Source of the DNA: an uncultured Candidatus Saccharibacteria bacterium
Lineage (GTDB): Bacteria; Patescibacteriota; Minisyncoccia; Phycocordibacterales; CAIZLB01
DNA: 59,087 nucleotides
NCBI GenBank assembly: GCA_964460835.1
Contig: CAYWQF010000001.1
Span: forward strand, 1-59,087
Direction: 5' to 3'
Shown piece by piece: positions 3,169 to 58,653 of this stretch. Every line of letters starts with the position of its first letter. Within the stretch, counting starts at the first letter, position 1. The translations under genes and the position numbers were made by a program. Below the pieces are notes generated by a model. That model was not told where the DNA came from. It did not search any database and saw only the letters and a list, made by a program, of their open reading frames with translations.

Positions 3169-3993
3169 ATGAGCTACTATATTGACTTTATTAACATGGG
3201 TAAAATTAGAGAATGGCAGGATCTAATAGGTGCATTCATTGGTGCCTTTTCAGCTTTTTTCTTGTGGTGGGTATCAGAAAGATATACTAGATATATTCAA
3301 AGGAAGGATGATATATATTTTATACATAAATGCATTGTGGATCAGGTGAATACTCTTCTTGAAACAAAAAGGACTCTTTCTTTGTTTGTAGATGATAAAT
3401 TAACTAAATTCCTTCTTGATGAAGAGAAAGAGACCGACAACGCTTATTTGGTAGATATGGCTTTTTTTCCTTTATTCTCGACACGACCTTTAGTAGAAGA
3501 GTTTCAAAAGAAAACTACAGGAAGTGGATTTATTGATAATAAGATTTTGAGAGCTTACGCAGTATCACAAGATTTACCTCATATTATTGATGATATTAGA
3601 AAACAATTTGATTCCATTTTAAATTTAAATAAGGAAATGGTTTTTGGTAAATTTAACACACCCTCTATTCAGAGGGCTTCCTACCTCAAGCATTTAGTTA
3701 ATTATAAAGAGACTACAGTAAATCAAATGATAAATACAAATATCCCTATTTTTTTGAAATTGTTAACTGAGTGTTTGGTGGCCATAGAAGACTTAAGAGA
3801 TAGGGGTATTTTAAAATGGAAATTGAAATTTGACTCTAAATTCCATTTTTACTGGAATAAAAAAAGTTTTGAAGATGATAGAAATAAAACCTTTGATAGG
3901 ATTGAAAACTATTTCTTACCTATTGTTAAGGAGCGTTTACGAAAGATTGATATAGATTATAAAAACATGTTTCCAAATGATTCTGAGAAGTAA
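3169..3993 (+). CDS. hypothetical membrane-anchored protein
   Basis: The ORF is open from 3160 (GTG); the first ATG is at 3169. One N-terminal TM helix (LIGAFIGAFSAFFLWWV). No recognisable catalytic motif. Confidence 0.5.
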   Translation: MSYYIDFINMGKIREWQDLIGAFIGAFSAFFLWWVSERYTRYIQRKDDIYFIHKCIVDQVNTLLETKRTLSLFVDDKLTKFLLDEEKETDNAYLVDMAFFPLFSTRPLVEEFQKKTTGSGFIDNKILRAYAVSQDLPHIIDDIRKQFDSILNLNKEMVFGKFNTPSIQRASYLKHLVNYKETTVNQMINTNIPIFLKLLTECLVAIEDLRDRGILKWKLKFDSKFHFYWNKKSFEDDRNKTFDRIENYFLPIVKERLRKIDIDYKNMFPNDSEK

Positions 3994-27160: not shown

Positions 27161-29116
27161 ATGAATAAAAAAATATCAAACGCGTCTGCGCGTTCATCGT
27201 CTACTGGCGGTGTAAAAAAGACATCATCAATTAAAAAAACGCATAAGTCTGAGTCTCATAAGTCTGCATCAAATGCGCATAAGACTGCGTCACACAGTTC
27301 TGCGGCTCATAGTCACAGTCCTATTTTGCAATCACCTTCAAAGTCAGCGTTAGCTGCCTCAGCAAACGCTGTGTCACATCCTGCACTTCGAACTTTCTCT
27401 GCACCAAAGCCATCTTACGGTGGTTCAAATAGTTATGGTCCAAGATCTGGCGGCGCATCTCATGGCGCGTCACGAGGAGGTTCATCATCTTACGGTGGTT
27501 CTAGTTCATCAAGAGGCGGTTCTTCTTATGGCGCATCACGTTCTGGTGGCTCTTCATATGGTGGCTCTTACTCATCACGATCTAGTGGAGGATACTCTGG
27601 TGGAGCTAGTGCTGGTGGTTACAGTTCACGAGGCGGTTCATCATCATACGGTCATTCAAGATCAAGTGGTGGTTACTCTAGTGCACCGCGTTCTGGTGGA
27701 TCATCATACGGATCACAGTCCGGTGGTTCTTCTTACGGCGCTAGTGCCGGCGGATACAGTTCACGAGGCGCTTCGTCTTATGGCCCTTCACGATCTGGTG
27801 GCTCATCATACGGTGCATCACGTTCAGGAGGTTCATCATATGGCTCACGAGGAGGTTCTTCTTATGGCGCGTCACGGTCCGGAGGCTACGGCTCACGAGG
27901 CGGTTCATCTTCATCACACGGTGGATACGCTCGTGGCGGTTCAGCTGGTATGGTACGAGGAGGTGGCGGACGAAACAAAGGTCAGTACATAGATGTAAAT
28001 CGTTTTATAAATAAAATAAAAGAACACGATGGTCACGCTTCAGCTGAAGCGGCAAAAGCTGCGGCTCCAAAGCCAAAGCATACATTCAATGATTTTAATA
28101 TCGCTGAAGATATTAAGAAGAGAATTGCGTTAAAAGGTTTTGTGACTCCAAGTCCAATACAAGATGGTGCTATTCCTTACATCATAGAAGGTAAAGACGT
28201 AGTCGGTATTGCCAACACAGGTACAGGTAAAACAGCGGCTTTCCTTATTCCTCTAGTAAATAAAGTAATAAATAATCCAAAAGAAGAAGTGCTTATCATG
28301 GCACCGACTCGAGAGCTTGCAATACAGATAGAAGAAGAGCTTTTGGTGTTTATTAAAAATACAAAAATATATTCTGTATGTTGCGTTGGAGGTGCTCATA
28401 TACGAAAGCAAATGTCAGAACTTAGATATTTCAACAACTTCGTTATCGGTACTCCGGGCCGTCTAAAAGATCTTGGCGAGCGAAAGTGTATTGATTTTTC
28501 AAAGTTTACAAATGTTGTACTCGATGAGGCTGACAGAATGCTAGATATGGGATTCATCGCTGATATGCGTTTCATGCTTGGTAAAATGCCAAAGACAAGA
28601 CAGACTCTTTTCTTCACAGCGACAATGTCAAAAGATATTGAAAAGCTTATTCATGAATTCTTGAACAATCCTATAACTGTATCTGTAAAGACAGGTGATA
28701 CTTCAAAGAGTGTTGATCAAGATGTAGTGCGAGTAGAAAGAGGTGCGTCAAAGATAGACAAGCTTCACGCTCTACTTTCTGATACAAAAGAATTTAATAA
28801 AGTGCTTATATTCGGTCAGACAAAGAGTGGTGTTGAAAGACTCACCGAAGACCTTATAAAACTTGGTCATAAAGCAGGTTCTATACATGGTGACAAAAAC
28901 CATTACCAGAGACAGAAAACGCTAAAGAATTTCAAAGATAATCTTATAAACATTCTTGTAGCGACAGATGTAGCTGCGCGAGGTTTGGATATCGCCGATG
29001 TATCTCATGTGATCAACTATGAGCTACCTATGACTTATGAGGACTATGTACACCGAATCGGCCGAACAGGCCGTGGTGGTAAGCTGGGTAAGGCACTGAC
29101 TTTCGTGGCGCATTAG
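27161..29116 (+). CDS. DEAD-box ATP-dependent RNA helicase with ~270-aa N-terminal Ser/Gly/Tyr/Arg low-complexity region
   Basis: Q-motif region (GFVTPSPIQ), motif I ANTGTGKTAAF, Ia PTRELA, II VLDEADRMLDMGF, III FTATM, VI HRIGRTGRGG. Confidence 0.9.
   Translation: MNKKISNASARSSSTGGVKKTSSIKKTHKSESHKSASNAHKTASHSSAAHSHSPILQSPSKSALAASANAVSHPALRTFSAPKPSYGGSNSYGPRSGGASHGASRGGSSSYGGSSSSRGGSSYGASRSGGSSYGGSYSSRSSGGYSGGASAGGYSSRGGSSSYGHSRSSGGYSSAPRSGGSSYGSQSGGSSYGASAGGYSSRGASSYGPSRSGGSSYGASRSGGSSYGSRGGSSYGASRSGGYGSRGGSSSSHGGYARGGSAGMVRGGGGRNKGQYIDVNRFINKIKEHDGHASAEAAKAAAPKPKHTFNDFNIAEDIKKRIALKGFVTPSPIQDGAIPYIIEGKDVVGIANTGTGKTAAFLIPLVNKVINNPKEEVLIMAPTRELAIQIEEELLVFIKNTKIYSVCCVGGAHIRKQMSELRYFNNFVIGTPGRLKDLGERKCIDFSKFTNVVLDEADRMLDMGFIADMRFMLGKMPKTRQTLFFTATMSKDIEKLIHEFLNNPITVSVKTGDTSKSVDQDVVRVERGASKIDKLHALLSDTKEFNKVLIFGQTKSGVERLTEDLIKLGHKAGSIHGDKNHYQRQKTLKNFKDNLINILVATDVAARGLDIADVSHVINYELPMTYEDYVHRIGRTGRGGKLGKALTFVAH
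27420..27960 (+). repeat. degenerate tandem coding repeats (GGSSYGASRSGG-type units)
   Basis: Repeated ggtggttc(a/t)tc(a/t)ta(c/t)gg...cg(a/t)tc(t/a)gg units can be seen by eye. They translate to an SYG/SRSGG-rich tract. Confidence 0.7.
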
Positions 29117-29435: not shown

Positions 29436-30164
29436 ATGAATGCAAAACAAACGCCGAAGCTCGCGGCAGCAATCACTGAGCACCAGGAGGCCTTTGAAAA
29501 TCTCCTCACGACAGAAGAGGCACAAGCTGCTATTCGTGACCCTCGCGGGTTCATCGCAGCGGCTTGTGAGGCTTGGAAAGTCCGGCTGAACAAGACTCTT
29601 GTTTTCAACGAACAACTCACCGACTGGCGCCACTTCTACCGTGAAGTCTTCAGCTTCACTGACACAGAGTCAATCAACCCGACTTTGCCATTAGAAACCA
29701 CCGGCTTCAACTGGCTAGTCGTCGTTCGCAAAGGCCTCACACTCAACAAAGTACTTGAGGTCATGTGTACCAAGTTCAATGTTTATAGCTACATCGGCGA
29801 CGACTTGGACAAAGGAGTCCCGACCAACGATCGCACTGCCGACAATGACTACACCATCAGCGTCCGCGACTGCGTTGAAGCTGACGAGGAAAACAAAAAA
29901 CTCTCTGCAAACCAGATCAAGGAAAAGAGAACCATCAGTATGACACTTCTCGAGCGTCTGCTGTTGGAACTCTTCTATTTCTGGGAGACGGGAGGACAGC
30001 ATCTCGACATCAGGAATGTGACGCTCTGTTCAGGTTCGCGCTACTCGGGCGGTGGCGTCCCGAGCGTCTGTTGGGACTCCGACAGCAGCAAGGTCAGCAT
30101 CGGCTGGTATCACACTGGCTATTCCGACGGCGATTTGCGGGCTCGTGAAGCAGTTGTCGGGTAA
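29436..30164 (+). CDS. DGR target (variable) protein
   Basis: 242-aa ORF, GC-rich, with no signal peptide. Its last ~40 codons (GSRYSGGGVPSVCWDSDSSKVSIGWYHTGYSDGDLRARE) form the variable repeat matching the template repeat. Confidence 0.75.
   Translation: MNAKQTPKLAAAITEHQEAFENLLTTEEAQAAIRDPRGFIAAACEAWKVRLNKTLVFNEQLTDWRHFYREVFSFTDTESINPTLPLETTGFNWLVVVRKGLTLNKVLEVMCTKFNVYSYIGDDLDKGVPTNDRTADNDYTISVRDCVEADEENKKLSANQIKEKRTISMTLLERLLLELFYFWETGGQHLDIRNVTLCSGSRYSGGGVPSVCWDSDSSKVSIGWYHTGYSDGDLRAREAVVG
30032..30147 (+). other. DGR variable repeat (VR)
   Basis: Ungapped hand alignment with 30505..30620 gives 98/116 identical. Of the 18 differences, 17 are at positions where the other copy has A (14 G, 2 T and 1 C in this copy). 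Confidence 0.85.
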
Positions 30165-30190
30165 TCTTGTACCTTTCGGTCTTGAAACCT

Positions 30191-30216
30191 GTCGAGCACC
30201 GATATGGGTGCTCGAC
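30191..30216 (+). promoter_or_regulatory. GC-rich hairpin downstream of VR (possible DGR homing-associated stem-loop)
   Basis: GTCGAGCACC (30191-30200) / GGTGCTCGAC (30207-16) with a 6-nt loop. It starts 44 nt after the VR end. A second hairpin, AATCGCCACC/GGTGGCGATT, lies at 30224-30255. Confidence 0.5.
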
Positions 30217-30504
30217 CAAAATCAATCGCCACCTTGCGTAAGCGGGGTGGCGATTTTATATTGCCTAAATTTTGCCGGCTGTGGATTATTCTTTTAAAAC
30301 TTTTATATAAAATAATGTACAATGTGCAAGGCTAATACAATCGGTTCGTGAGAAATTATGAATATCGATTTGCCATAAGAAACTGCCTATTTTGCTTATG
30401 AGTGAGATAGCATCAGGACTCAAAACTTAGCTGACTTGGATCAGATAACTCAAGCGATTTTGAAAAAGGTCACTGGTGTATATAGACGGTGAAAGGTAGC
30501 ATAG

Positions 30505-30620
30505 AGGTTCGCGCTACTCGGACGGTAACGTCCCGAACGTCAATTGGAACTCCGACAACAGCAAGGTCAACATCAATTGGTATAACACTGACAATTCCAA
30601 CGACAATTTGCGGGCTCGTG
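30505..30620 (+). other. DGR template repeat (TR)
   Basis: Non-coding copy. An in-frame stop at 30497-99 lies just upstream and there is no start codon. It is rich in AAY codons (GSRYSDGNVPNVNWNSDNSKVNINWYNTDNSNDNLRAR) exactly where the VR differs. Confidence 0.85.
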
Positions 30621-30707
30621 CAGAAGTTTCGACAAAATAAGAGCGTAAGAATAACATCCAGCGTTCTTATTTTTTTGCCAATTTTTTATCTATATTTTTA
30701 AACCTAC

Positions 30708-31049
30708 TCATCTGAGATATTTTTCCCAACCAGATGTCATTTTAGAAATTTCCTGTAATTTTTCTTGAATAGCAATATATTTTCTTTGTTCTATTATTTT
30801 TAGATCGCCAGGTACGCGGCACAAATGCTTAACTATTTCTATATGTATCCTGAGCTCTCTTATGATGACGAGTTTGTTTTTTCTACTTGAAAGTGAAGAC
30901 TCTAGACTTAAACCAAGACAATCAAGCGCAGACTTTTCAATTTTCTGCCATATTCCAAATCTGTTCAATTTGGATATTTTAGTACCAGTTTTATATATTT
31001 CCTTATATAATTCAGTGACATGAAAAACTACGGGAGCAACAGTGGAACC
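30708..31049 (-). CDS. four-helix-bundle protein (23S rRNA-IVS / DGR Avd-like accessory protein), start unresolved
   Basis: ELYKEIYKTGTKISKLNRFGIWQKIEKSALDCLGLSLES resembles the EIYKLTKKFPKEE(K/R)(Y/F)GLxSQ(I/L)RRAAxSIxxNIAEG core of this family. There is no ATG/GTG/TTG between the homologous region and the ORF-track ATG at 31250. An ATG at 31107 becomes in-frame if the C9 tract loses one base. Confidence 0.6.
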   Translation of the reverse strand, partial: GSTVAPVVFHVTELYKEIYKTGTKISKLNRFGIWQKIEKSALDCLGLSLESSLSSRKNKLVIIRELRIHIEIVKHLCRVPGDLKIIEQRKYIAIQEKLQEISKMTSGWEKYLR

Positions 31050-31053
31050 TTGA

Positions 31054-32193
31054 GTCGTCGCGGGGGGGGGTAGAGTTCTGATTTTTAAAGATATTGTTTG
31101 TGTCCATAATTTATTTGATGCTTGGAATGAGTTTAAGCGCGGGAAGATTAAAAAGCAAGATGTACAAGAGTTTTTGTTGAATTTAGAGGATAATATTTTT
31201 AAATTACAAAAAGATCTTTTGGACAAAAAGTGGGAACCAGACCCATACAAAGCCTTTTATGTTCGTGACCCAAAGCTTAGACATATACATAAAGCTTCTG
31301 TCAGAGACAGAGTATTGTATCAAGCTGTATATAGAAAGTTGTATGGTGCTTTCGATAAACATTTTATATATGATTCATATTCTTGCAGGAGCGATAAAGG
31401 GTTACACAAAGGTTATAGACGGTTAGAACTGTTTATTAGAAAGTCTACAAAAAATTATACTATGACATCTTATGTACTTAAATGTGACATAAGAAAGTTT
31501 TTTGATTCGATATCGCACGATAAACTTTTTAGTTTGATTTATAAAAAGATAGTCGATCAAGATATTTTACAATTGGTTAAACAAATTCTCGACAGTTTTT
31601 CTAAAAATGAAGGAGTCGGCCTACCTCTTGGAAATGTTACTAGCCAGCTATTTTCAAATATTTATTTAAATGAACTTGACCAATTTATTAAACACAAATT
31701 GAAGGTAAAATATTATGCCCGTTACTGTGACGATTTTGTAATAGTAAATTCAAGCGAGGAAAAATTGGAGTATTTTATAAAGCAGATTGATTATTTTCTT
31801 AAAGTAAACTTGAGGGTGAACCTACATCCTAAAAAAGTAATCATAAGAAAAGTCAGTCGCGGTATTGATTTTTTAGGTTATATATCTATGAGGAGTCATT
31901 CTTTACTGCGGACTAATACAAAAAAGAGGATTATAAAGAAAATAGATAGACTCGTATTTGAAGGTGGCCGTGAAAAATTGCAACGATGTTTGCCGTCCTA
32001 CCTAGGTATTTTGAAGCATACTCATGGCAATAAAATTGCGGATATTATTTATAAAAAAATAAAGCCAATATTTGTAGAAGAAATAAATATGTATGAGAGA
32101 ATGTTTAAAAGTATATATTTAGCATTAGAAAAATATCATCTCAAAATATCTAGTTTGTCTGTTACGCAGTCAGATATTCTGCCAAAAAAGTAG
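31054..32193 (+). CDS. DGR-type reverse transcriptase (open frame from 31054; start unresolved)
   Basis: FKDIVCVHNLFDAWNEFKRGKIKKQDVQEFLLNLEDNIF is a typical DGR RT N-terminus and lies upstream of the ORF-track start at 31174. Other motifs: CDIRKFFDSISHD, GLPLGNVTSQLFSNIYLNELD ((I/L)GxxxSQ) and YARYCDDFVIV (YxDD). The ATG at 31020 is one frame off, separated by the G9 tract. Confidence 0.85.
   Translation, partial: VVAGGGRVLIFKDIVCVHNLFDAWNEFKRGKIKKQDVQEFLLNLEDNIFKLQKDLLDKKWEPDPYKAFYVRDPKLRHIHKASVRDRVLYQAVYRKLYGAFDKHFIYDSYSCRSDKGLHKGYRRLELFIRKSTKNYTMTSYVLKCDIRKFFDSISHDKLFSLIYKKIVDQDILQLVKQILDSFSKNEGVGLPLGNVTSQLFSNIYLNELDQFIKHKLKVKYYARYCDDFVIVNSSEEKLEYFIKQIDYFLKVNLRVNLHPKKVIIRKVSRGIDFLGYISMRSHSLLRTNTKKRIIKKIDRLVFEGGREKLQRCLPSYLGILKHTHGNKIADIIYKKIKPIFVEEINMYERMFKSIYLALEKYHLKISSLSVTQSDILPKK
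31062..31070. repeat. G9/C9 homopolymer at the junction of the divergent RT and Avd-like frames
   Basis: The block cggggggggg was read directly. It is a conspicuous homopolymer in this AT-rich stretch. Confidence 0.95.
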
Positions 32194-53649: not shown

Positions 53650-56600
53650 TTAATCCAACACCTTCACTGTATCTATAATAAGACTCGGGGTGCCATTTCG
53701 GCTGGATGTTTTAGCTTTGATAGCTACACAAGCTTCTGGTTTCAGTATGCCTTTGAACTGCTCGTAAGTCTTTGGAAATACCACCACCTCTATAGAGCCA
53801 GTGAAGTCTGCGAGCTTGAGGAACATCATTTTGATGGTCGGATCTTTTTTTGTTGCTATCTCTTTTGCTTCTTCTATGATGCCCGCCACTATGACTTGTC
53901 TTTCACGAGGCTGATTTTCCTGCATTTGTTTTTTGTAATCTTCTTTGCTGGTGAATTTCTTTTTCGGTGCTCCGTTTGATGCGCCTGCCTTTTTTACATC
54001 TCCTTCTGACGCTGAGCTTGCGTCATCTGTATCTTTTTCAGCATTTTCCTCGCCGGCAGTGGCAGCACTTTCGCCCCTCTCGGCTAGTTGTGATGGATGT
54101 ATTCCTTTTGCAAACGCTATCTTTTCAGCGAGCTCTTTTTCTTTGGCTTCCTTTATTGCCATCTTTTCAGCAAATATTTTTGCGTCAGTTTCTATAACCT
54201 CGCGTACTTTTGCAATATTTATATCACGCTTTTCTAGTATGGCTTTATATTTGTCGAGAGGGTGGCCGGATACATATAGGCCAAGAAGTTCTTTTTCCCA
54301 AGTGAGCTTTTCTGTCTGTGTGGCGTGACCTTCCTCTTTGAGTCGTAGGTGCTCGCCGTAGCCACCGATCTTTTTTGTATCAGTTTCATTTGTAGTGGAA
54401 GGCGAGTCGAACGGCACAAATATATCTGCTTGTGCGCCCATAAAAGCACCAAAGAGTGAATCCTGATTTTCTGGACGTTTGTGTTGTTCTTTGTTGTATT
54501 CGAGTAAGTCTGGAAGGTTTGTGAGCATCACACCTCGGTCACCATATTCGTCCATAGCTCCAGATTTTATGAGAGCTTCGAGAGATTTTTTATTTAAATT
54601 TTTATCTTTTATGCGGTCGAGGAAATTTTCTAGTGTCAAAAATGGTCCGCCTTTTTTGCGTTCTTCTATTATGGCGTCAGCAATACCTTCGCCAAAGTTT
54701 TTGATACTGTAAAGTCCGAAGCGGATTTTGTCGGTATTTTTTACAATCTCAACAGACCCTTCTGTCGCGTTGGTTTTTTCTAAGTTACTTTTACCAAGCG
54801 ATCCGTCTTTGATAACTGTGAAGTTACCAAAGCTTTCATTCACGTTTGGTGCGAGAGTATCTATACCCATTCGTTTACATTCATTGATAAATACAGAGAT
54901 TTCCTCTACATCACCATGAGCACCAGTGAGTACTGCGGCCATATATATAGCAGGGAAGTTGGCCTTCATATAGGCCGTATGATAGGCGAGCTGTCCATAG
55001 CTGGCGGCGTGAGAATTATGAACAATGATATCATTTGCGACAAAGTTGTGGTGAGGTTCTATAGTAAGATCATAAGTCATTTCACGAGTACTTTTTGTAA
55101 TAGACACAACCTCATCCCAAAATATATCTGACGTAGCGTGGGCGATGATAGCATTTGATTTTAATACCAGACCTATTTTCTCTAATGTTTTTCTTTGATA
55201 ACCTATTTTTTTATTGTCCGCACCGAGAAGTCTTTCTGAAATGCCAGCTTTTTGTGCAAGCGTCTTTACTGAAATATTTTGCCTTGTCATCTCAGAGCGA
55301 ATAAGTTTTAAAATATCTGCTGGCACAATATCTGTTGTACCTCTGGCAAGTAGCCCGTTTGTTTTGGAAGTATAAGCCTTAACTGCCTGATCTTTTAATT
55401 TTTTAAGATCAACTTTTTTATCACCCAATAGATGAGGATGTATTGCAGTATAGAGTTTGTCTATATTATCTTTGTGACTAACGACGACCGTGTAACCGTC
55501 TTTTAGCGTGCCTCGATAACGGAATTTTTTTGAATGAATCGTACTCAGTATTCCAAAGCGAAGTAGAATATGTTGCATATCATGAGCAAGCTGTTTTGAG
55601 CTTGTGGCATAAAAAGCTTGAGTATTTTTGATACTGATAGCTCCATCACCTTGCCAAGCTTTTGCTAGGAAAATAGATAAAGCCGGTCTATTTAATTCAA
55701 ATACAAAGTTTGGTAAAAACTTTTCTGTGGCTTTTTTGTCCGCGAGACCGAGTTTTTCTACAAACATTTTCAATTCATTTCCTTTTCTCTGATTTTCTTG
55801 ACCTACATATACAGACTGTGCATTTTTAGACATATCTACAGTGATGCGAGTATTTTTGAAAATCTTGGTGTGTTTTATAAAATCTTTAACCTCAGTATAT
55901 TTTGTAGAATAAAAATAAATTCCATGTGGGTGGCACAGATTTCCTTCTGATATTAGATAGCCCAGCACCGCTGATTTTGCATTGAGCGCTAATTGTTTTT
56001 TGGATGAAGACTTTGTCTGTGGAAGTTTCGCATCAAAATATTTTGTCCGCATCTCACGAGGTGTGGCTATTTTTTCTCCGACTTTTAAATCAGATAGATT
56101 TTTCCACGAAGAAAGTTCGGGAGAAAATGTTAGGAAGGGATGATTGTCTGTCGCCTTTATTTCTCTGCCACTTCGAGTTTTTAGAATATAGGTTTGTTTT
56201 ACGCCATTTTCCATCGCTTTTGATGTTTTGTATGGCGACAGCTTTAAAGATGGTGCATCTTTTTTCACACTTTTTTCTGAGCCCAAATCTGTATCTAAAG
56301 AATGCAGTGGATATTTTTCCGCTAATGAAATAGGGGCACTATACAGGTCTTTTATTGTGATTCTAGACCCGTTTGTCGCACTAGTTAGTAGAGTGTCTCC
56401 TGACAAACACTTGTTGAATCCATACGCCTGAAACGGTTCAAAGAGTTTCCATAGTCGCTCAGCAAACTTTTTGGTTTGGCCATTTTTGACAATACCTTCG
56501 GTGAGCTTTTCTTTTTGTGCGGCCATTTCTTCACGAATCTTTTTACCCACAGCTTTTCGGAATTTGTCGGCTTCAAGCCAAGAGTATCCAGCAAGTTCGA

Positions 56601-58653
56601 TAGCAGAGAAAAGAAGGTCATCCTGATATACGATGAGACCAAAAGATTCTTTGAGATATTTTTCCATACGAGGATCTTCGTATTTTATGAGTGACGGATC
56701 ATTTTTTCGACGAATATATTCTGGAATAGTTTCCATCGGTCCTGGACGATACAGTGCCACCATCGCGTTTATATCGTGAATAGTTGTTGGCTTCAATTCT
56801 TTCAAAAAACGAGTCATACCAGAACCGTTGAGCTGAAAGAGCCCTTCCGTCTCGCCACGTGCCAACATTTCGAAAGTTTTTTTATCATCGAGGGGAATGC
56901 TATCGAGATCAATTTTCACACCTTCAATCTTTTCTGCAAGATCTAGTGCATCAGCTAGCTGTGAAAGGTTTTTGATACCAAGAAAGTCAAACTTCAAAAG
57001 ACCTGCATTGTTTTCATCCACTGAACGCATATCGTATTGAGTAATGATACGACCTTCACCTTTTGGATCTAGCTGTAGCGGTACGATATCTGTCAGAGGA
57101 ATAGGTGACATAACCACACCGGCGGCATGTACAGAGATGTGTCGAGCACAGCCTTCTATTTGCTTTGCCATATCTAGTATGGTTTTTACATCAGCCTGTT
57201 TCTCATACATTTCTTTGAGTTCTGTAGTCTCAGCGAGCGCTCTGTCTATAGTCATAGCAAAACCTTGCTGACCCATAGGTATGAGCTTGGCGATAGTATC
57301 ACCGAGCGTGTATGGAAAACCCATCGCTCGAGCCACATCTCGCACCGCACCACGGGCCATCATCGTTCCAAAGGTACCGATTTGAGCCACTTTGTCATGA
57401 CCGTATTTTTCTTTTGAATACGCAATCATTTGATCACGTTTGTTGTCGGCATAATCCATATCGATATCTGGCGCAGAAGGTCTCTCAGGATTTAGGAAAC
57501 GTTCGAAGGGAAGTTTGTATTCTATAGGATTCACATTTGTAATACCTGTCAGATAGGTGATCATAGAGCCCGCCACAGACCCTCGAATGTTTGTGAGGAT
57601 TTTATTTCTATGTGCATAATGTAAAAGGTCGGCTACCACCAAGAAGTAAGGTGAATATCCTTTTGTCTTTATTACCTCCAACTCATACTCAATACGCTTT
57701 TTTACTTCATCTGTGAGCTCAACTTTTCGGCGCTTTAGACCTTCGTAAGCGAGGAATCGAAGTTCGTCATCAGCGGTGCGCCCACTTTCTACGACAAAGT
57801 TCGGGAACAGCCATTTACCTAGCTCAAGCTGTGTGTCACAAGAGTCTGCTATTTTTTTACAGTTATCTAGTGCATCAGGGATTTTTAAAATCTGATTGAA
57901 ATATTCCTCAGCTCTTTCTTGTGAAATAAAAGAGAAGTCCGCCTCATCTTCACGACTTCTTTCACTAAACTGATCTTGTATAGACACGAGGGTGTCGCGA
58001 GCCTTTTTGTCTTCCGGCTTTATATAGTACACATCATGAGCGGCGACGAGTGGAATATTTTCCGCGCGAGCAAAGTCCACAAGTTTTTTCATATTTTCTT
58101 CATGTTCATCGAGCTCTGGATGATGAGTTATTTCAATATAAAAATCTTCGCCAAAATGTTTACGATAATAGTCGGCAATAGCTTTAGCATGTTCTAAGTT
58201 GCTAGTCTTTACCGCTTGACTGAGCTCGCCACTAAAAGATGGATTTATAACAATGAGCCCTTCTTTATATTTTTCTATAAGCTCTTTATCTATTCGAGGT
58301 TTGTAATAGAATCCGTCAATGTTCGACTCTGTGACGAGCTTTATGAGGTTTTTATAACCATCGAGGTTTTTTGCGAGCATTACTAGACGAGTACGACGAT
58401 TGTCTATTCTCGGCTCTTTGTCATGCCTTGTGCGCACCGCTACATAAAAGTCCACTCCTATAATAGGCTTGATGCCTTGCTTCTGACACTCTTTATAAAA
58501 CTCGATAGTGCCATACATGTTTCCTGCATCGGTGAGAGCTAGCGCTGGCATCTTGCACTCTACAGCGGCCTTGACTAGCGCCTTTATCTTCGGTAATGCC
58601 TGCAAAAGACTGTAGTGACTATGTGTATGAAGATGTATAAATCGGTCTGACAT
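53650..58653 (-). CDS. dnaE: DNA polymerase III alpha subunit, interrupted by an intein
   Basis: PHP domain start FIHLHTHSHYSLL, pol III alpha core blocks (GSVAGSMITYLTGIT, PDIDMDY, LLKFDFLGIKNL, ALYRPGP), and an OB-fold region near the C-terminus. 1667 aa including a 465-aa intein. Confidence 0.95.
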   Translation of the reverse strand: MSDRFIHLHTHSHYSLLQALPKIKALVKAAVECKMPALALTDAGNMYGTIEFYKECQKQGIKPIIGVDFYVAVRTRHDKEPRIDNRRTRLVMLAKNLDGYKNLIKLVTESNIDGFYYKPRIDKELIEKYKEGLIVINPSFSGELSQAVKTSNLEHAKAIADYYRKHFGEDFYIEITHHPELDEHEENMKKLVDFARAENIPLVAAHDVYYIKPEDKKARDTLVSIQDQFSERSREDEADFSFISQERAEEYFNQILKIPDALDNCKKIADSCDTQLELGKWLFPNFVVESGRTADDELRFLAYEGLKRRKVELTDEVKKRIEYELEVIKTKGYSPYFLVVADLLHYAHRNKILTNIRGSVAGSMITYLTGITNVNPIEYKLPFERFLNPERPSAPDIDMDYADNKRDQMIAYSKEKYGHDKVAQIGTFGTMMARGAVRDVARAMGFPYTLGDTIAKLIPMGQQGFAMTIDRALAETTELKEMYEKQADVKTILDMAKQIEGCARHISVHAAGVVMSPIPLTDIVPLQLDPKGEGRIITQYDMRSVDENNAGLLKFDFLGIKNLSQLADALDLAEKIEGVKIDLDSIPLDDKKTFEMLARGETEGLFQLNGSGMTRFLKELKPTTIHDINAMVALYRPGPMETIPEYIRRKNDPSLIKYEDPRMEKYLKESFGLIVYQDDLLFSAIELAGYSWLEADKFRKAVGKKIREEMAAQKEKLTEGIVKNGQTKKFAERLWKLFEPFQAYGFNKCLSGDTLLTSATNGSRITIKDLYSAPISLAEKYPLHSLDTDLGSEKSVKKDAPSLKLSPYKTSKAMENGVKQTYILKTRSGREIKATDNHPFLTFSPELSSWKNLSDLKVGEKIATPREMRTKYFDAKLPQTKSSSKKQLALNAKSAVLGYLISEGNLCHPHGIYFYSTKYTEVKDFIKHTKIFKNTRITVDMSKNAQSVYVGQENQRKGNELKMFVEKLGLADKKATEKFLPNFVFELNRPALSIFLAKAWQGDGAISIKNTQAFYATSSKQLAHDMQHILLRFGILSTIHSKKFRYRGTLKDGYTVVVSHKDNIDKLYTAIHPHLLGDKKVDLKKLKDQAVKAYTSKTNGLLARGTTDIVPADILKLIRSEMTRQNISVKTLAQKAGISERLLGADNKKIGYQRKTLEKIGLVLKSNAIIAHATSDIFWDEVVSITKSTREMTYDLTIEPHHNFVANDIIVHNSHAASYGQLAYHTAYMKANFPAIYMAAVLTGAHGDVEEISVFINECKRMGIDTLAPNVNESFGNFTVIKDGSLGKSNLEKTNATEGSVEIVKNTDKIRFGLYSIKNFGEGIADAIIEERKKGGPFLTLENFLDRIKDKNLNKKSLEALIKSGAMDEYGDRGVMLTNLPDLLEYNKEQHKRPENQDSLFGAFMGAQADIFVPFDSPSTTNETDTKKIGGYGEHLRLKEEGHATQTEKLTWEKELLGLYVSGHPLDKYKAILEKRDINIAKVREVIETDAKIFAEKMAIKEAKEKELAEKIAFAKGIHPSQLAERGESAATAGEENAEKDTDDASSASEGDVKKAGASNGAPKKKFTSKEDYKKQMQENQPRERQVIVAGIIEEAKEIATKKDPTIKMMFLKLADFTGSIEVVVFPKTYEQFKGILKPEACVAIKAKTSSRNGTPSLIIDTVKVLD
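55015..56409 (-). mobile_element. intein with LAGLIDADG homing-endonuclease domain inside dnaE
   Basis: Inserted in the conserved ...AYGFNK | SHAASYG... block. N-terminal CLSGDTLL (Cys1), block B TDNHPF, LAGLIDADG-like VLGYLISEGNL and FLAKAWQGDGAI, C-terminal NDIIVHN followed by Ser+1. 1395 nt, in frame (residues 749-1213). Confidence 0.9.

Follow-up and report, generated by a model that had tools for sequence, protein, structure and literature searches.

How is a diversity-generating retroelement (DGR) to be read when both of its enzyme genes are thrown out of frame at one and the same site? The question is raised by positions 29436-32193 of a 59,087-nucleotide (nt) stretch of DNA from an uncultured Candidatus Saccharibacteria bacterium (NCBI GenBank assembly GCA_964460835.1, contig CAYWQF010000001.1); the whole stretch was analysed and is called the window below. 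The element consists of a target gene carrying a variable repeat (VR) near its 3' end, a non-coding template repeat (TR), a reverse transcriptase (RT) gene and, on the opposite strand between TR and RT, a gene for an Avd-like accessory protein. A preliminary description of this DNA had called the DGR complete. This word does not hold for the element as assembled: a run of nine guanines (G9) puts the ATG starts of RT and Avd out of frame, and the intact, translatable RT and accessory genes expected of a DGR are missing in this form. We lean towards reading the element as a real DGR that a slippage-driven switch has left in its OFF phase.

The G9:C9 homopolymer (31062..31070, no strand assigned) lies in the antisense-overlapping 5' coding regions of the two enzyme genes, where it would encode a glycine run in RT and a proline run in Avd. 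The RT gene (31020..32193, plus strand) was delimited from its frames, from the starts of homologues and from its match to the Bordetella RT (bRT), and the avd gene (30708..31107, minus strand) from its core, which is in frame from the run to a TGA stop at 30708-30710, and from profile hidden Markov model (HMM) matches. The ATG at 31020 reads MKNYGSNSGTLSRRGGG, 17 codons, and then meets a TAG at 31071-31073. The RT core frame (RVLIFKDIVCVHNLFDAW...YCDD...) extends from 31072 to the stop at 32191-32193, and the first ATG, GTG or TTG after its upstream stop is a TTG at 31174, 22 codons past the conserved NLFDAW. On the other strand, the avd ATG at 31107-31105 reads MDTNNIFKNQNSTPP..., in a frame that stops after 31 codons as assembled (C9), and the first canonical start in the Avd core frame is a TTG 31 codons beyond the expected N-terminus. 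Two features had been overlooked in the earlier reading: the first canonical RT start comes only after the NLFDAW... N-terminus, and the Avd frame, too, has no start close to its N-terminus. One G fewer or two more (G8 or G11) gives ATG-started open reading frames (ORFs) for both genes, with the N-termini MKNYGSNSGTLSRRGGGRVLIFKDIVCVHNLFDAW... for RT and MDTNNIFKNQNSTPPATTQGSTVAPVVFHVTELYKEIY... for Avd; restored in this way, the genes overlap antisense by about 90 nt, both passing through the same G:C tract. Homologous RTs begin M-x(n)-GGG-x(n)-NLxxAW, and in nine relatives the reconstructed Avds align with the Avd profile from its position 1-2, directly after the proline run; the M...PPP N-terminus, too, is the same in relatives. 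The repeat, therefore, lies within coding sequence of both reconstructed genes, as in a contingency locus, and it is the only G/C run of at least 7 nt in the 59-kb window. Each of the ATGs at 31020-31022 and 31105-31107 faces, in exact codon register, a CAT codon for His in the other gene.

Two other accounts of the missing starts were considered and rejected. An alternative genetic code (TGA read as Gly or Trp, which occurs in certain CPR lineages) is at odds with long ORFs under translation table 11, such as that of the 1667-aa DnaE, and with the Avd frame ending at TGA exactly where the Avd HMM ends. A role of the G run as a Shine-Dalgarno sequence fails because, in the window and in the other loci whose RT reads through the run, the stretch from the run to the conserved N-terminus contains no canonical start.

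The identity of the element as a DGR was examined on the RT, on the accessory protein and on the repeat pair. The best match of the RT in the Protein Data Bank (PDB) was the Bordetella bRT (8ub7_A, E 1.1e-44, residues 23-330), 23 orders of magnitude ahead of the next matches, which were group II-like RTs (E 2.8e-21). The three motifs reported in the preliminary description, NLFDAWNEFKRGK, LGNVTSQLF and YCDDFVIV, were all found again in the RT frame, which carries LPLGNVTSQLF (LGxxxSQ) and YCDD (YxDD). The NCBIfam models listed for the RT stayed below their cut-offs: the group II model TIGR04416 with 149 bits (cut-off 300), a retron model with 70 bits (cut-off 235) and Drt3a. The minus-strand ORF that had been described as Avd-like matched NF033474 (DivGenRetAVD; E 6.8e-12, 45.6 bits, curated cut-off 80) and PF22296 (bAvd; E 1e-8, 36 bits, cut-off 40), in both cases below the cut-off. 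The match spans the full length of the profile, which begins directly behind the proline run, and nine relatives score 30-65 bits. The avd assignment is accordingly one by homology and context, not a trusted cut-off match.

The VR (30032..30147, plus strand) comprises the last 116 nt of the target coding sequence ahead of its final five codons; 17 nt separate its end from the stop of ORF 29436-30164. The TR (30505..30620, plus strand) is non-coding, lies 473 nt downstream of the VR and about 400 nt upstream of the RT start, and contains 34 adenines, mainly in the equivalents of AAY codons. Ungapped comparison of 30032-30147 with 30505-30620 reproduced the reported near-repeat, with 98 identities in 116 positions and 18 mismatches; in a repeat search the pair appeared as 124 nt (30032-30155 and 30505-30628, 84% identity), since a weaker similarity to the TR runs on to 30155. 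A recount of the mismatches agreed with the earlier tally in every class: 17 of 18 fall at TR adenines, where the VR reads G (14 times), T (twice) or C (once), and the remaining one is a T/C difference at codon position 3 (TR T 30577, VR C 30104). Read in the frame of ORF 29436-30164, the 17 adenine-site changes all affect the first or second position of an AAY/GAC template codon, as had been claimed, and half of the TR adenines (17 of 34) are substituted. This pattern is far from chance. In one relative (L085), two VR changes likewise stand at TR thymines (4144 and 4147 in the coordinates of locus L001). An adenine-blind scan of both strands of the window found no further VR or remote-target copy beyond the known VR.

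In the non-DGR account of these features, the RT would be that of a group II intron, of a retron or of a defence system, and the repeat an ordinary duplication. The NCBIfam models that are listed are indeed of the group II, Drt3a and retron kinds, all below cut-off, and source annotations name the relatives "retron-type RT". Against this stand the lead of bRT as the closest solved relative, the adjacent Avd gene, the adenine specificity of the mismatches and the confinement of the adenine-site changes to codon positions 1 and 2; the RT has no maturase or endonuclease domain, and an Rfam scan of the window returned tRNA-Gln alone, with no intron or retron RNA. We give this account almost no credence. 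A DGR-clade RT, an adenine-specific TR/VR pair and an accessory protein together support the identification as a genuine DGR at the sequence level, as the preliminary description had proposed.

Related loci were surveyed in order to place the element and its tract. The set comprised 83 loci: 80 from GTDB species representatives, two others and the window. Homologues of the RT number in the thousands; the closest are 50-71% identical, and those with a source name are labelled Patescibacteria. Identity of the RT to the surveyed relatives was 45-71%. The 80 GTDB loci come nearly all from metagenome-assembled genomes (MAGs) of Patescibacteria, the candidate phyla radiation (CPR); three are labelled Gammaproteobacteria and several are unclassified. 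The relatives share the order target (+), TR, avd (-), RT (+), sometimes together with an upstream DEAD-box helicase. The organisation had been called atypical in the earlier description; avd does lie on the opposite strand between TR and RT, but this is the norm of the clade and not an exception. In the window the DGR neighbourhood is chromosomal (DEAD-box helicase, PIF1, FAD oxidase, an S24/LexA-like protein and DnaE). By sequence and gene order, the element belongs to a large, Patescibacteria-restricted, chromosomal DGR clade that corresponds to clade 2 of Roux et al. (2021). About 50 relatives have a VR/TR pair of 95-136 nt with mismatches almost all at TR adenines, proportions that are somewhat inflated because the scoring scheme prefers adenine-biased pairs.

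A pure run of 7 to 20 guanines (G7-G20) was found at the equivalent site in 61 of the 83 loci; it lies 28-79 nt ahead of NLxxAW, and its lengths peak at G9 and G10. The related loci amount to 536 kb, in which 63 G/C runs of at least 7 nt occur, 59 of them being this tract. The loci fall into two layouts. In the first, with about 38 loci including the window, the RT and avd ORFs both cross the run. In the second, with about 22 loci, avd alone crosses the run, the ATG of RT being 13-14 nt downstream of it; here RT and Avd are exactly antisense to each other over their first eight codons, and each ATG faces the His-8 CAT of the other gene. L061 and L038 are examples of the second layout, and in L038 a palindromic TCATGA supplies both start codons.

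In 35 loci of the first layout, exactly one run-length class (modulo 3) yields ATG-started ORFs for both genes, which indicates that the two genes are co-phased through the tract. By this frame logic, length switches the frame of both genes in these 35 loci and of avd in 13 more. Of the 35, 11 are in the ON phase, 13 need one nucleotide less and 11 need one more; in the second layout, 3 of the 13 loci with a unique avd class are ON. Among all 48 loci with a single in-frame class, 14 are ON, 19 need -1 and 15 need +1. The two closest relatives of the window are both OFF: L088 has G9 followed by TAG as in the window, and L087 has G10 where G11 is needed.

In five loci a dinucleotide repeat takes the place of the G run: (GT)9 in L038 and L045, (CT)n in L053 and L054, and (GA)9 in L076. 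These repeats encode His-Thr, Arg-Glu or Ser-Leu in the N-terminal extension of Avd, and in L076 of RT as well; some of these loci are in frame and some are not. Three further loci (L005, L034 and L071) have an interrupted, degenerated G run, and all three are in frame. Judging from these sequences, what is conserved at the avd/RT junction is the repeat itself and not the peptide that it encodes. The varied repeat chemistry, the purity of the tract across 45-70% protein divergence and the decay products locked ON are hallmarks of contingency loci. Such hallmarks are familiar from the systems of Neisseria, Haemophilus and Campylobacter.

Length variation was then compared among near-identical genomes, where it was seen in relatives of the window. 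In ten RT clusters (at least 90% identity), the N-termini of the members differ exactly at the glycine run, and all three phases are present: in-phase lengths with 4 and 7 Gly residues, and the other two phases with substitute starts. The clusters also contain truncated RT products, e.g. a 42-aa ...VVGGGAS*, similar to the 17-aa peptide of the window. One RT protein, P0146 (in the cluster of P0042), has ...GGGGVIVVIFDVINIRNLY in place of the ...GGGRHSCNFYDVINIRNLY of its relatives, which gives it the look of a repaired frameshift, a +1 change in the run being apparently offset by a second indel about 20 nt downstream. In one species, five assemblies with identical flanks have G20, G13 (three times) and G11, and the 2790 aligned nt of the four full-length assemblies vary in the VR (27 columns, 25 of them at TR adenines) and in the run only. 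In a second species, the assemblies differ over about 2.7 kb in the VR and the run only, eight contigs having G8 and a single one G9. The one departure is in the truncated contig L097, where a block immediately 3' of the target gene varies as well, perhaps as an artefact of alignment at the contig end. As read from the assemblies of these two related species, the comparisons show that DGRs of this clade are active in nature and that the tract is the only other hypervariable site.

These data bear on a simple objection, that the DGR of the window is intact and ordinary and that its run is really G8, misread as G9 in sequencing or assembly. A difference of one base would restore both genes, homopolymers are error-prone, and some of the related assemblies are based on long reads. 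The same explanation would, however, demand errors in two thirds of 48 independent assemblies and in both directions. The within-species lengths G11, G13 and G20 are not errors of plus or minus one, G13 recurs in three independent assemblies, and alternative-phase RT proteins recur on up to 11 contigs, a single such form having been found on 11. Length differences of 2-9 nt, seen repeatedly in independent assemblies, are not sequencing noise. An error in the window is accordingly regarded as improbable. Sister populations of the window's own species were also sought: an exact-flank DNA scan of metagenomes gave no match, and an exact look-up of the target protein placed it on no other contig.

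A second possibility is that the element is a decaying (fossil) DGR, its frameshift inactivating and its VR/TR pair no more than a relic. Both enzyme genes are out of frame as assembled and one VR/TR mismatch is not at an adenine, as might be expected of such a relic. Apart from the tract, however, both ORFs are fully open and all catalytic motifs are intact, and one lesion strikes both genes at a single site that is hypervariable in relatives. Decay is unlikely because the only lesion is at this hypervariable tract, and the VR has not drifted, given that 17 of the 18 mismatches are at adenines. The relatives in the OFF phase are informative here: 481 of 504 VR/TR mismatches in OFF loci are at adenines, compared with 211 of 217 in ON loci. 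OFF-phase relatives have thus retained clean adenine-specific VR/TR pairs and are not decaying. Taken together, these observations make a fossil quite improbable, slightly more so than an assembly error. A cassette that appears genuinely decayed was found in L021 (about 3400-3530), where a 30-aa C-terminal remnant of avd lies beside a start-less RT, unlike the other loci, whose lesions are confined to the tract.

The most serious competitor accepts that the tract is hypervariable and denies that its phase matters: RNA polymerase slippage on the G/C run, or +1/-1 slippage of the ribosome on GGG-G or CCC-C, would yield some in-frame RT and Avd whatever the tract length, and the run would keep the enzymes at a constitutively low level instead of switching them. 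The near uniformity of phases among the 48 loci is what would be expected if the DNA phase were selectively neutral. Both genes of the window need the same +1 shift, and in the window and in L088 the G9 is followed by TAG in the RT start frame, giving a slippery site right beside a stop codon. GGGG and CCCC quadruplets are prone to +1 slippage. Several features speak against it. The dinucleotide repeats at the same site are classical elements of DNA slippage and not known recoding sites, the degenerated tracts are fixed in frame in three of three cases, and no one phase is conserved, which is unlike the requirement of a programmed frameshift site. Efficient transcriptional slippage is, moreover, documented mainly for A/T runs. 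We hold this explanation to be rather unlikely, although less so than either error or decay.

The model that we prefer, a DGR whose mutator is switched at the DNA level, can be set out as follows. By the established mechanism of DGRs, the TR would be transcribed as a short RNA that ends at its own terminator; RT and Avd would copy this RNA into cDNA with misincorporation opposite adenines; and the cDNA would take the place of the VR at the 3' end of the gene for the 242-aa target, these steps being taken over from the Bordetella paradigm. Here avd and RT are divergent and overlap in antisense at their 5' ends, with one tract read as Gly-Gly-Gly in RT and as Pro-Pro-Pro in Avd. Slipped-strand mispairing at replication would then change the tract by one nucleotide and take both genes in or out of frame together, and since one tract stands in both reading frames, RT and avd would switch jointly. 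The tract would act as a heritable, reversible ON/OFF (or high/low) switch of the mutator: mutagenesis would occur in bursts in ON sublineages, and the variants would be fixed once the tract slips OFF. In the window, G9 is an OFF length, and the diversified VR, with half of its templated adenines changed, would now be locked in. The parts of the DGR, its frames, the conservation of the tract and the length polymorphism of the relatives are direct observations; that the tract switches in the organism of the window, and that it thereby controls mutagenesis, we infer from them.

Several observations weigh against this model. In the 22 loci of the second layout the run cannot frameshift RT, and 11 related loci are without any repeat and have only adjacent divergent starts. 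About half of the loci offer a TTG or GTG in the Avd frame no more than 8 codons past the run, and some loci or species have an alternative upstream RT start in a second phase; with such rescue starts, the OFF state of those loci may be one of lowered and not of abolished expression. No rescue start of this kind is present in the window. About one third of loci in the ON phase would also be expected if phase were irrelevant and polymerase or ribosome slippage supplied the in-frame product. Finally, G9 in the window could be a miscall, and the length polymorphism was seen in the sequences of relatives. Set against the evidence above, we regard it as an even chance that a large Patescibacteria DGR lineage carries a built-in contingency switch, in which a simple sequence repeat (SSR), mostly poly-G:C and at times a dinucleotide repeat, in the overlapping avd/RT 5' ends toggles targeted hypermutation; for the element of the window itself, a real DGR in its OFF phase is the reading to which we incline.

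The DGR as such is an ordinary new member of a known and abundant clade. It resembles the described DGRs of Patescibacteria/CPR (clade 2) in its MAG host, its chromosomal site, its target-TR-avd(-)-RT(+) layout and its single small target, domain-less and with a C-terminal VR; the element is the same, and the added feature is the overlap of the avd/RT 5' ends that share a hypervariable SSR. The first survey of cellular DGRs in Patescibacteria/CPR is said to be that of Paul et al. 2017. In the survey of Roux et al. 2021 (PMC8144416), clade 2 is Patescibacteria-restricted and cellular, the CPR targets have no recognisable domains, and there is no mention of Avd, frameshifts or homopolymers. Full-text literature searches, together with that survey, returned no homopolymer, SSR, frameshift or phase variation in the RT or avd of a DGR, although Paul et al. 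2017 may contain an earlier mention. The shared avd/RT tract, its hypervariability at the population level and the mostly out-of-frame states are new in the sense that none of them is described in the literature searched. The activity of Patescibacteria clade 2 was reported to be significantly below average (Roux et al., 2021; PMC8144416), a finding that fits the switch model.

Comparison with the DGR of Bordetella phage BPP-1 (mtd-avd-TR-brt) revealed common and differing features. The window is alike in the adenine-specific flow from TR to VR implied by the mismatches, in its bRT-homologous RT with an Avd four-helix-bundle partner, in the GC-rich 3' end shared by VR and TR, and in a predicted hairpin downstream of the VR. 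Unlike in BPP-1, an inverted avd stands between TR and RT, the TR is followed by a terminator of its own, both enzymes carry N-terminal extensions through the G:C tract, the host is cellular and not a phage, and the target is not detectably Mtd-like (Foldseek E of at least 1). With the poly-G/C contingency loci of Campylobacter, Neisseria, Haemophilus and Bordetella, the tract shares an intragenic pure run of 7-13 (up to 20) nucleotides, length polymorphism, frame shifts, dinucleotide equivalents and the rarity of such runs elsewhere. It differs from them in that one tract serves two antisense-overlapping genes in CPR hosts, and in that, by frame logic, the controlled function would be targeted hypermutation and not a surface or restriction-modification gene.

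What holds DGR mutagenesis in check, and so saves useful variants from being overwritten, has still to be explained, and the regulation of DGRs in uncultivated bacteria is nearly undescribed. If the switch model is correct, a shared slippage tract would be a very simple answer, providing stochastic, heritable ON/OFF states of the mutator; one hypermutable site would regulate another, bursts of diversification would be followed by locked variants, and the lower apparent activity of the clade in metagenomes would be accounted for. Should the tract prove to be mere noise, what is left is an ordinary member of a DGR clade already known.

The tract also affects annotation. In the window contig Avd is effectively missed, and RT is annotated from the TTG at 31174 (database entry P0001, 31174-32193); with the start placed there, the annotated RT loses its conserved N-terminus. 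In many other loci (e.g. L002, L088 and L089) RT is called from an internal TTG or avd is cut to 75-110 aa. Gene callers mis-start or truncate RT and Avd in about two thirds of the loci, which biases surveys of CPR DGRs and estimates of their activity. Because the tract misleads automatic annotation, RT and Avd database entries for CPR DGRs are often wrong at the N-terminus.

The flanks of the repeat pair contain further elements, some of which may take part in homing. VR and TR have a GC-rich 3' end in common, GCGGGCTCGTG (30137..30147, plus strand, assigned from the sequence), directly after which they part, with AAGCAGTTG in the VR and CAGAAGTTT in the TR; GGGCTCGTG also forms the 3' end of VR and TR in L001 and several further relatives. 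By the Bordetella paradigm, a role like that of the initiation of mutagenic homing (IMH) site is inferred for this end. A DNA fold of 30125-30270 (z-score -5.3) predicted a 10-bp GC-rich hairpin, GTCGAGCACC-GATATG-GGTGCTCGAC (30191..30216, plus strand), that starts 27 nt past the stop of the target gene and is a candidate target-recognition hairpin or cruciform by analogy with BPP-1. It is followed by a predicted intrinsic terminator of the target gene with a 14-bp stem and a T-run (30224..30262, plus strand). An RNA fold placed a putative terminator hairpin of the TR transcript, with a 13-bp stem and a U-run, at 30636..30679 (no strand assigned), and an equivalent hairpin is present 3' of the TR in L001. 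As it sits between the TR and the 3' end of avd, this terminator may work in both directions. Directly 3' of the TR stands the motif GAAGTTTC (30623..30630, plus strand), which is kept at the TR flank in many group-A relatives. In its wider form, (C/G)AGAAGTTT(C), it occupies window positions 30621-30630 and is absent after the VR; this form was found at the TR 3' flank in L007, L008, L012, L014, L015, L016, L024, L025, L028, L032, L037 and others. The motif could be a piece of a functional or priming element at the 3' end of the TR RNA, comparable to the Bordetella spacer. A promoter scan returned sites no more frequent than in shuffled sequence, and for this reason no TR promoter is claimed.

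The target gene (29436..30164, plus strand) is an ORF for a variable protein of 242 aa. It belongs to a CPR-specific family of proteins of about 230-260 aa with a conserved C-terminal TLCSGSRxSDGxVPxVxW...LRAR region; no Pfam domain was detected in any of 177 homologues, and the target itself has no Pfam or NCBIfam domain. AlphaFold2 (AF2) modelled the whole target with a pLDDT of 93.6 and its C-terminal domain with 95.3. Foldseek searches of the PDB with the two AF2 models gave no significant fold match; the top-ranked, non-significant hits were the C-type lectins 3whd and 5b1w and Mtd 1yu1 (E of at least 1, TM about 0.3), and a fold like that of C-type lectins is possible on these models. 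The contrast of a GC-rich target with an AT-rich RT, mentioned in the preliminary description, was borne out by a composition count: 53% GC for the target (63% at third codon positions) and 31% for RT (27% at third codon positions). RT and avd are AT-rich (31-35% GC) and the target GC-rich in a genome of 39% GC, and the contrast spans the whole target and not the VR alone. Since the target exceeds RT in GC content in 51 of 51 relatives (medians 55% and 37%), the contrast is clade-wide and not a sign of a chimera.

Two neighbouring genes were also inspected. The DEAD-box helicase directly upstream of the DGR (window 27161-29116) has a low-complexity N-terminus of about 300 aa rich in Ser, Gly and Tyr. 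A DEAD-box helicase is the upstream neighbour of the DGR in another species as well (L089-L093; positions 1-887 of L089), and this shared neighbour suggests a conserved chromosomal position. Farther away, the DNA polymerase III alpha subunit DnaE (1667 aa; window 53650-58653, minus strand) contains an intein with a LAGLIDADG homing-endonuclease domain at residues of about 762-1213.

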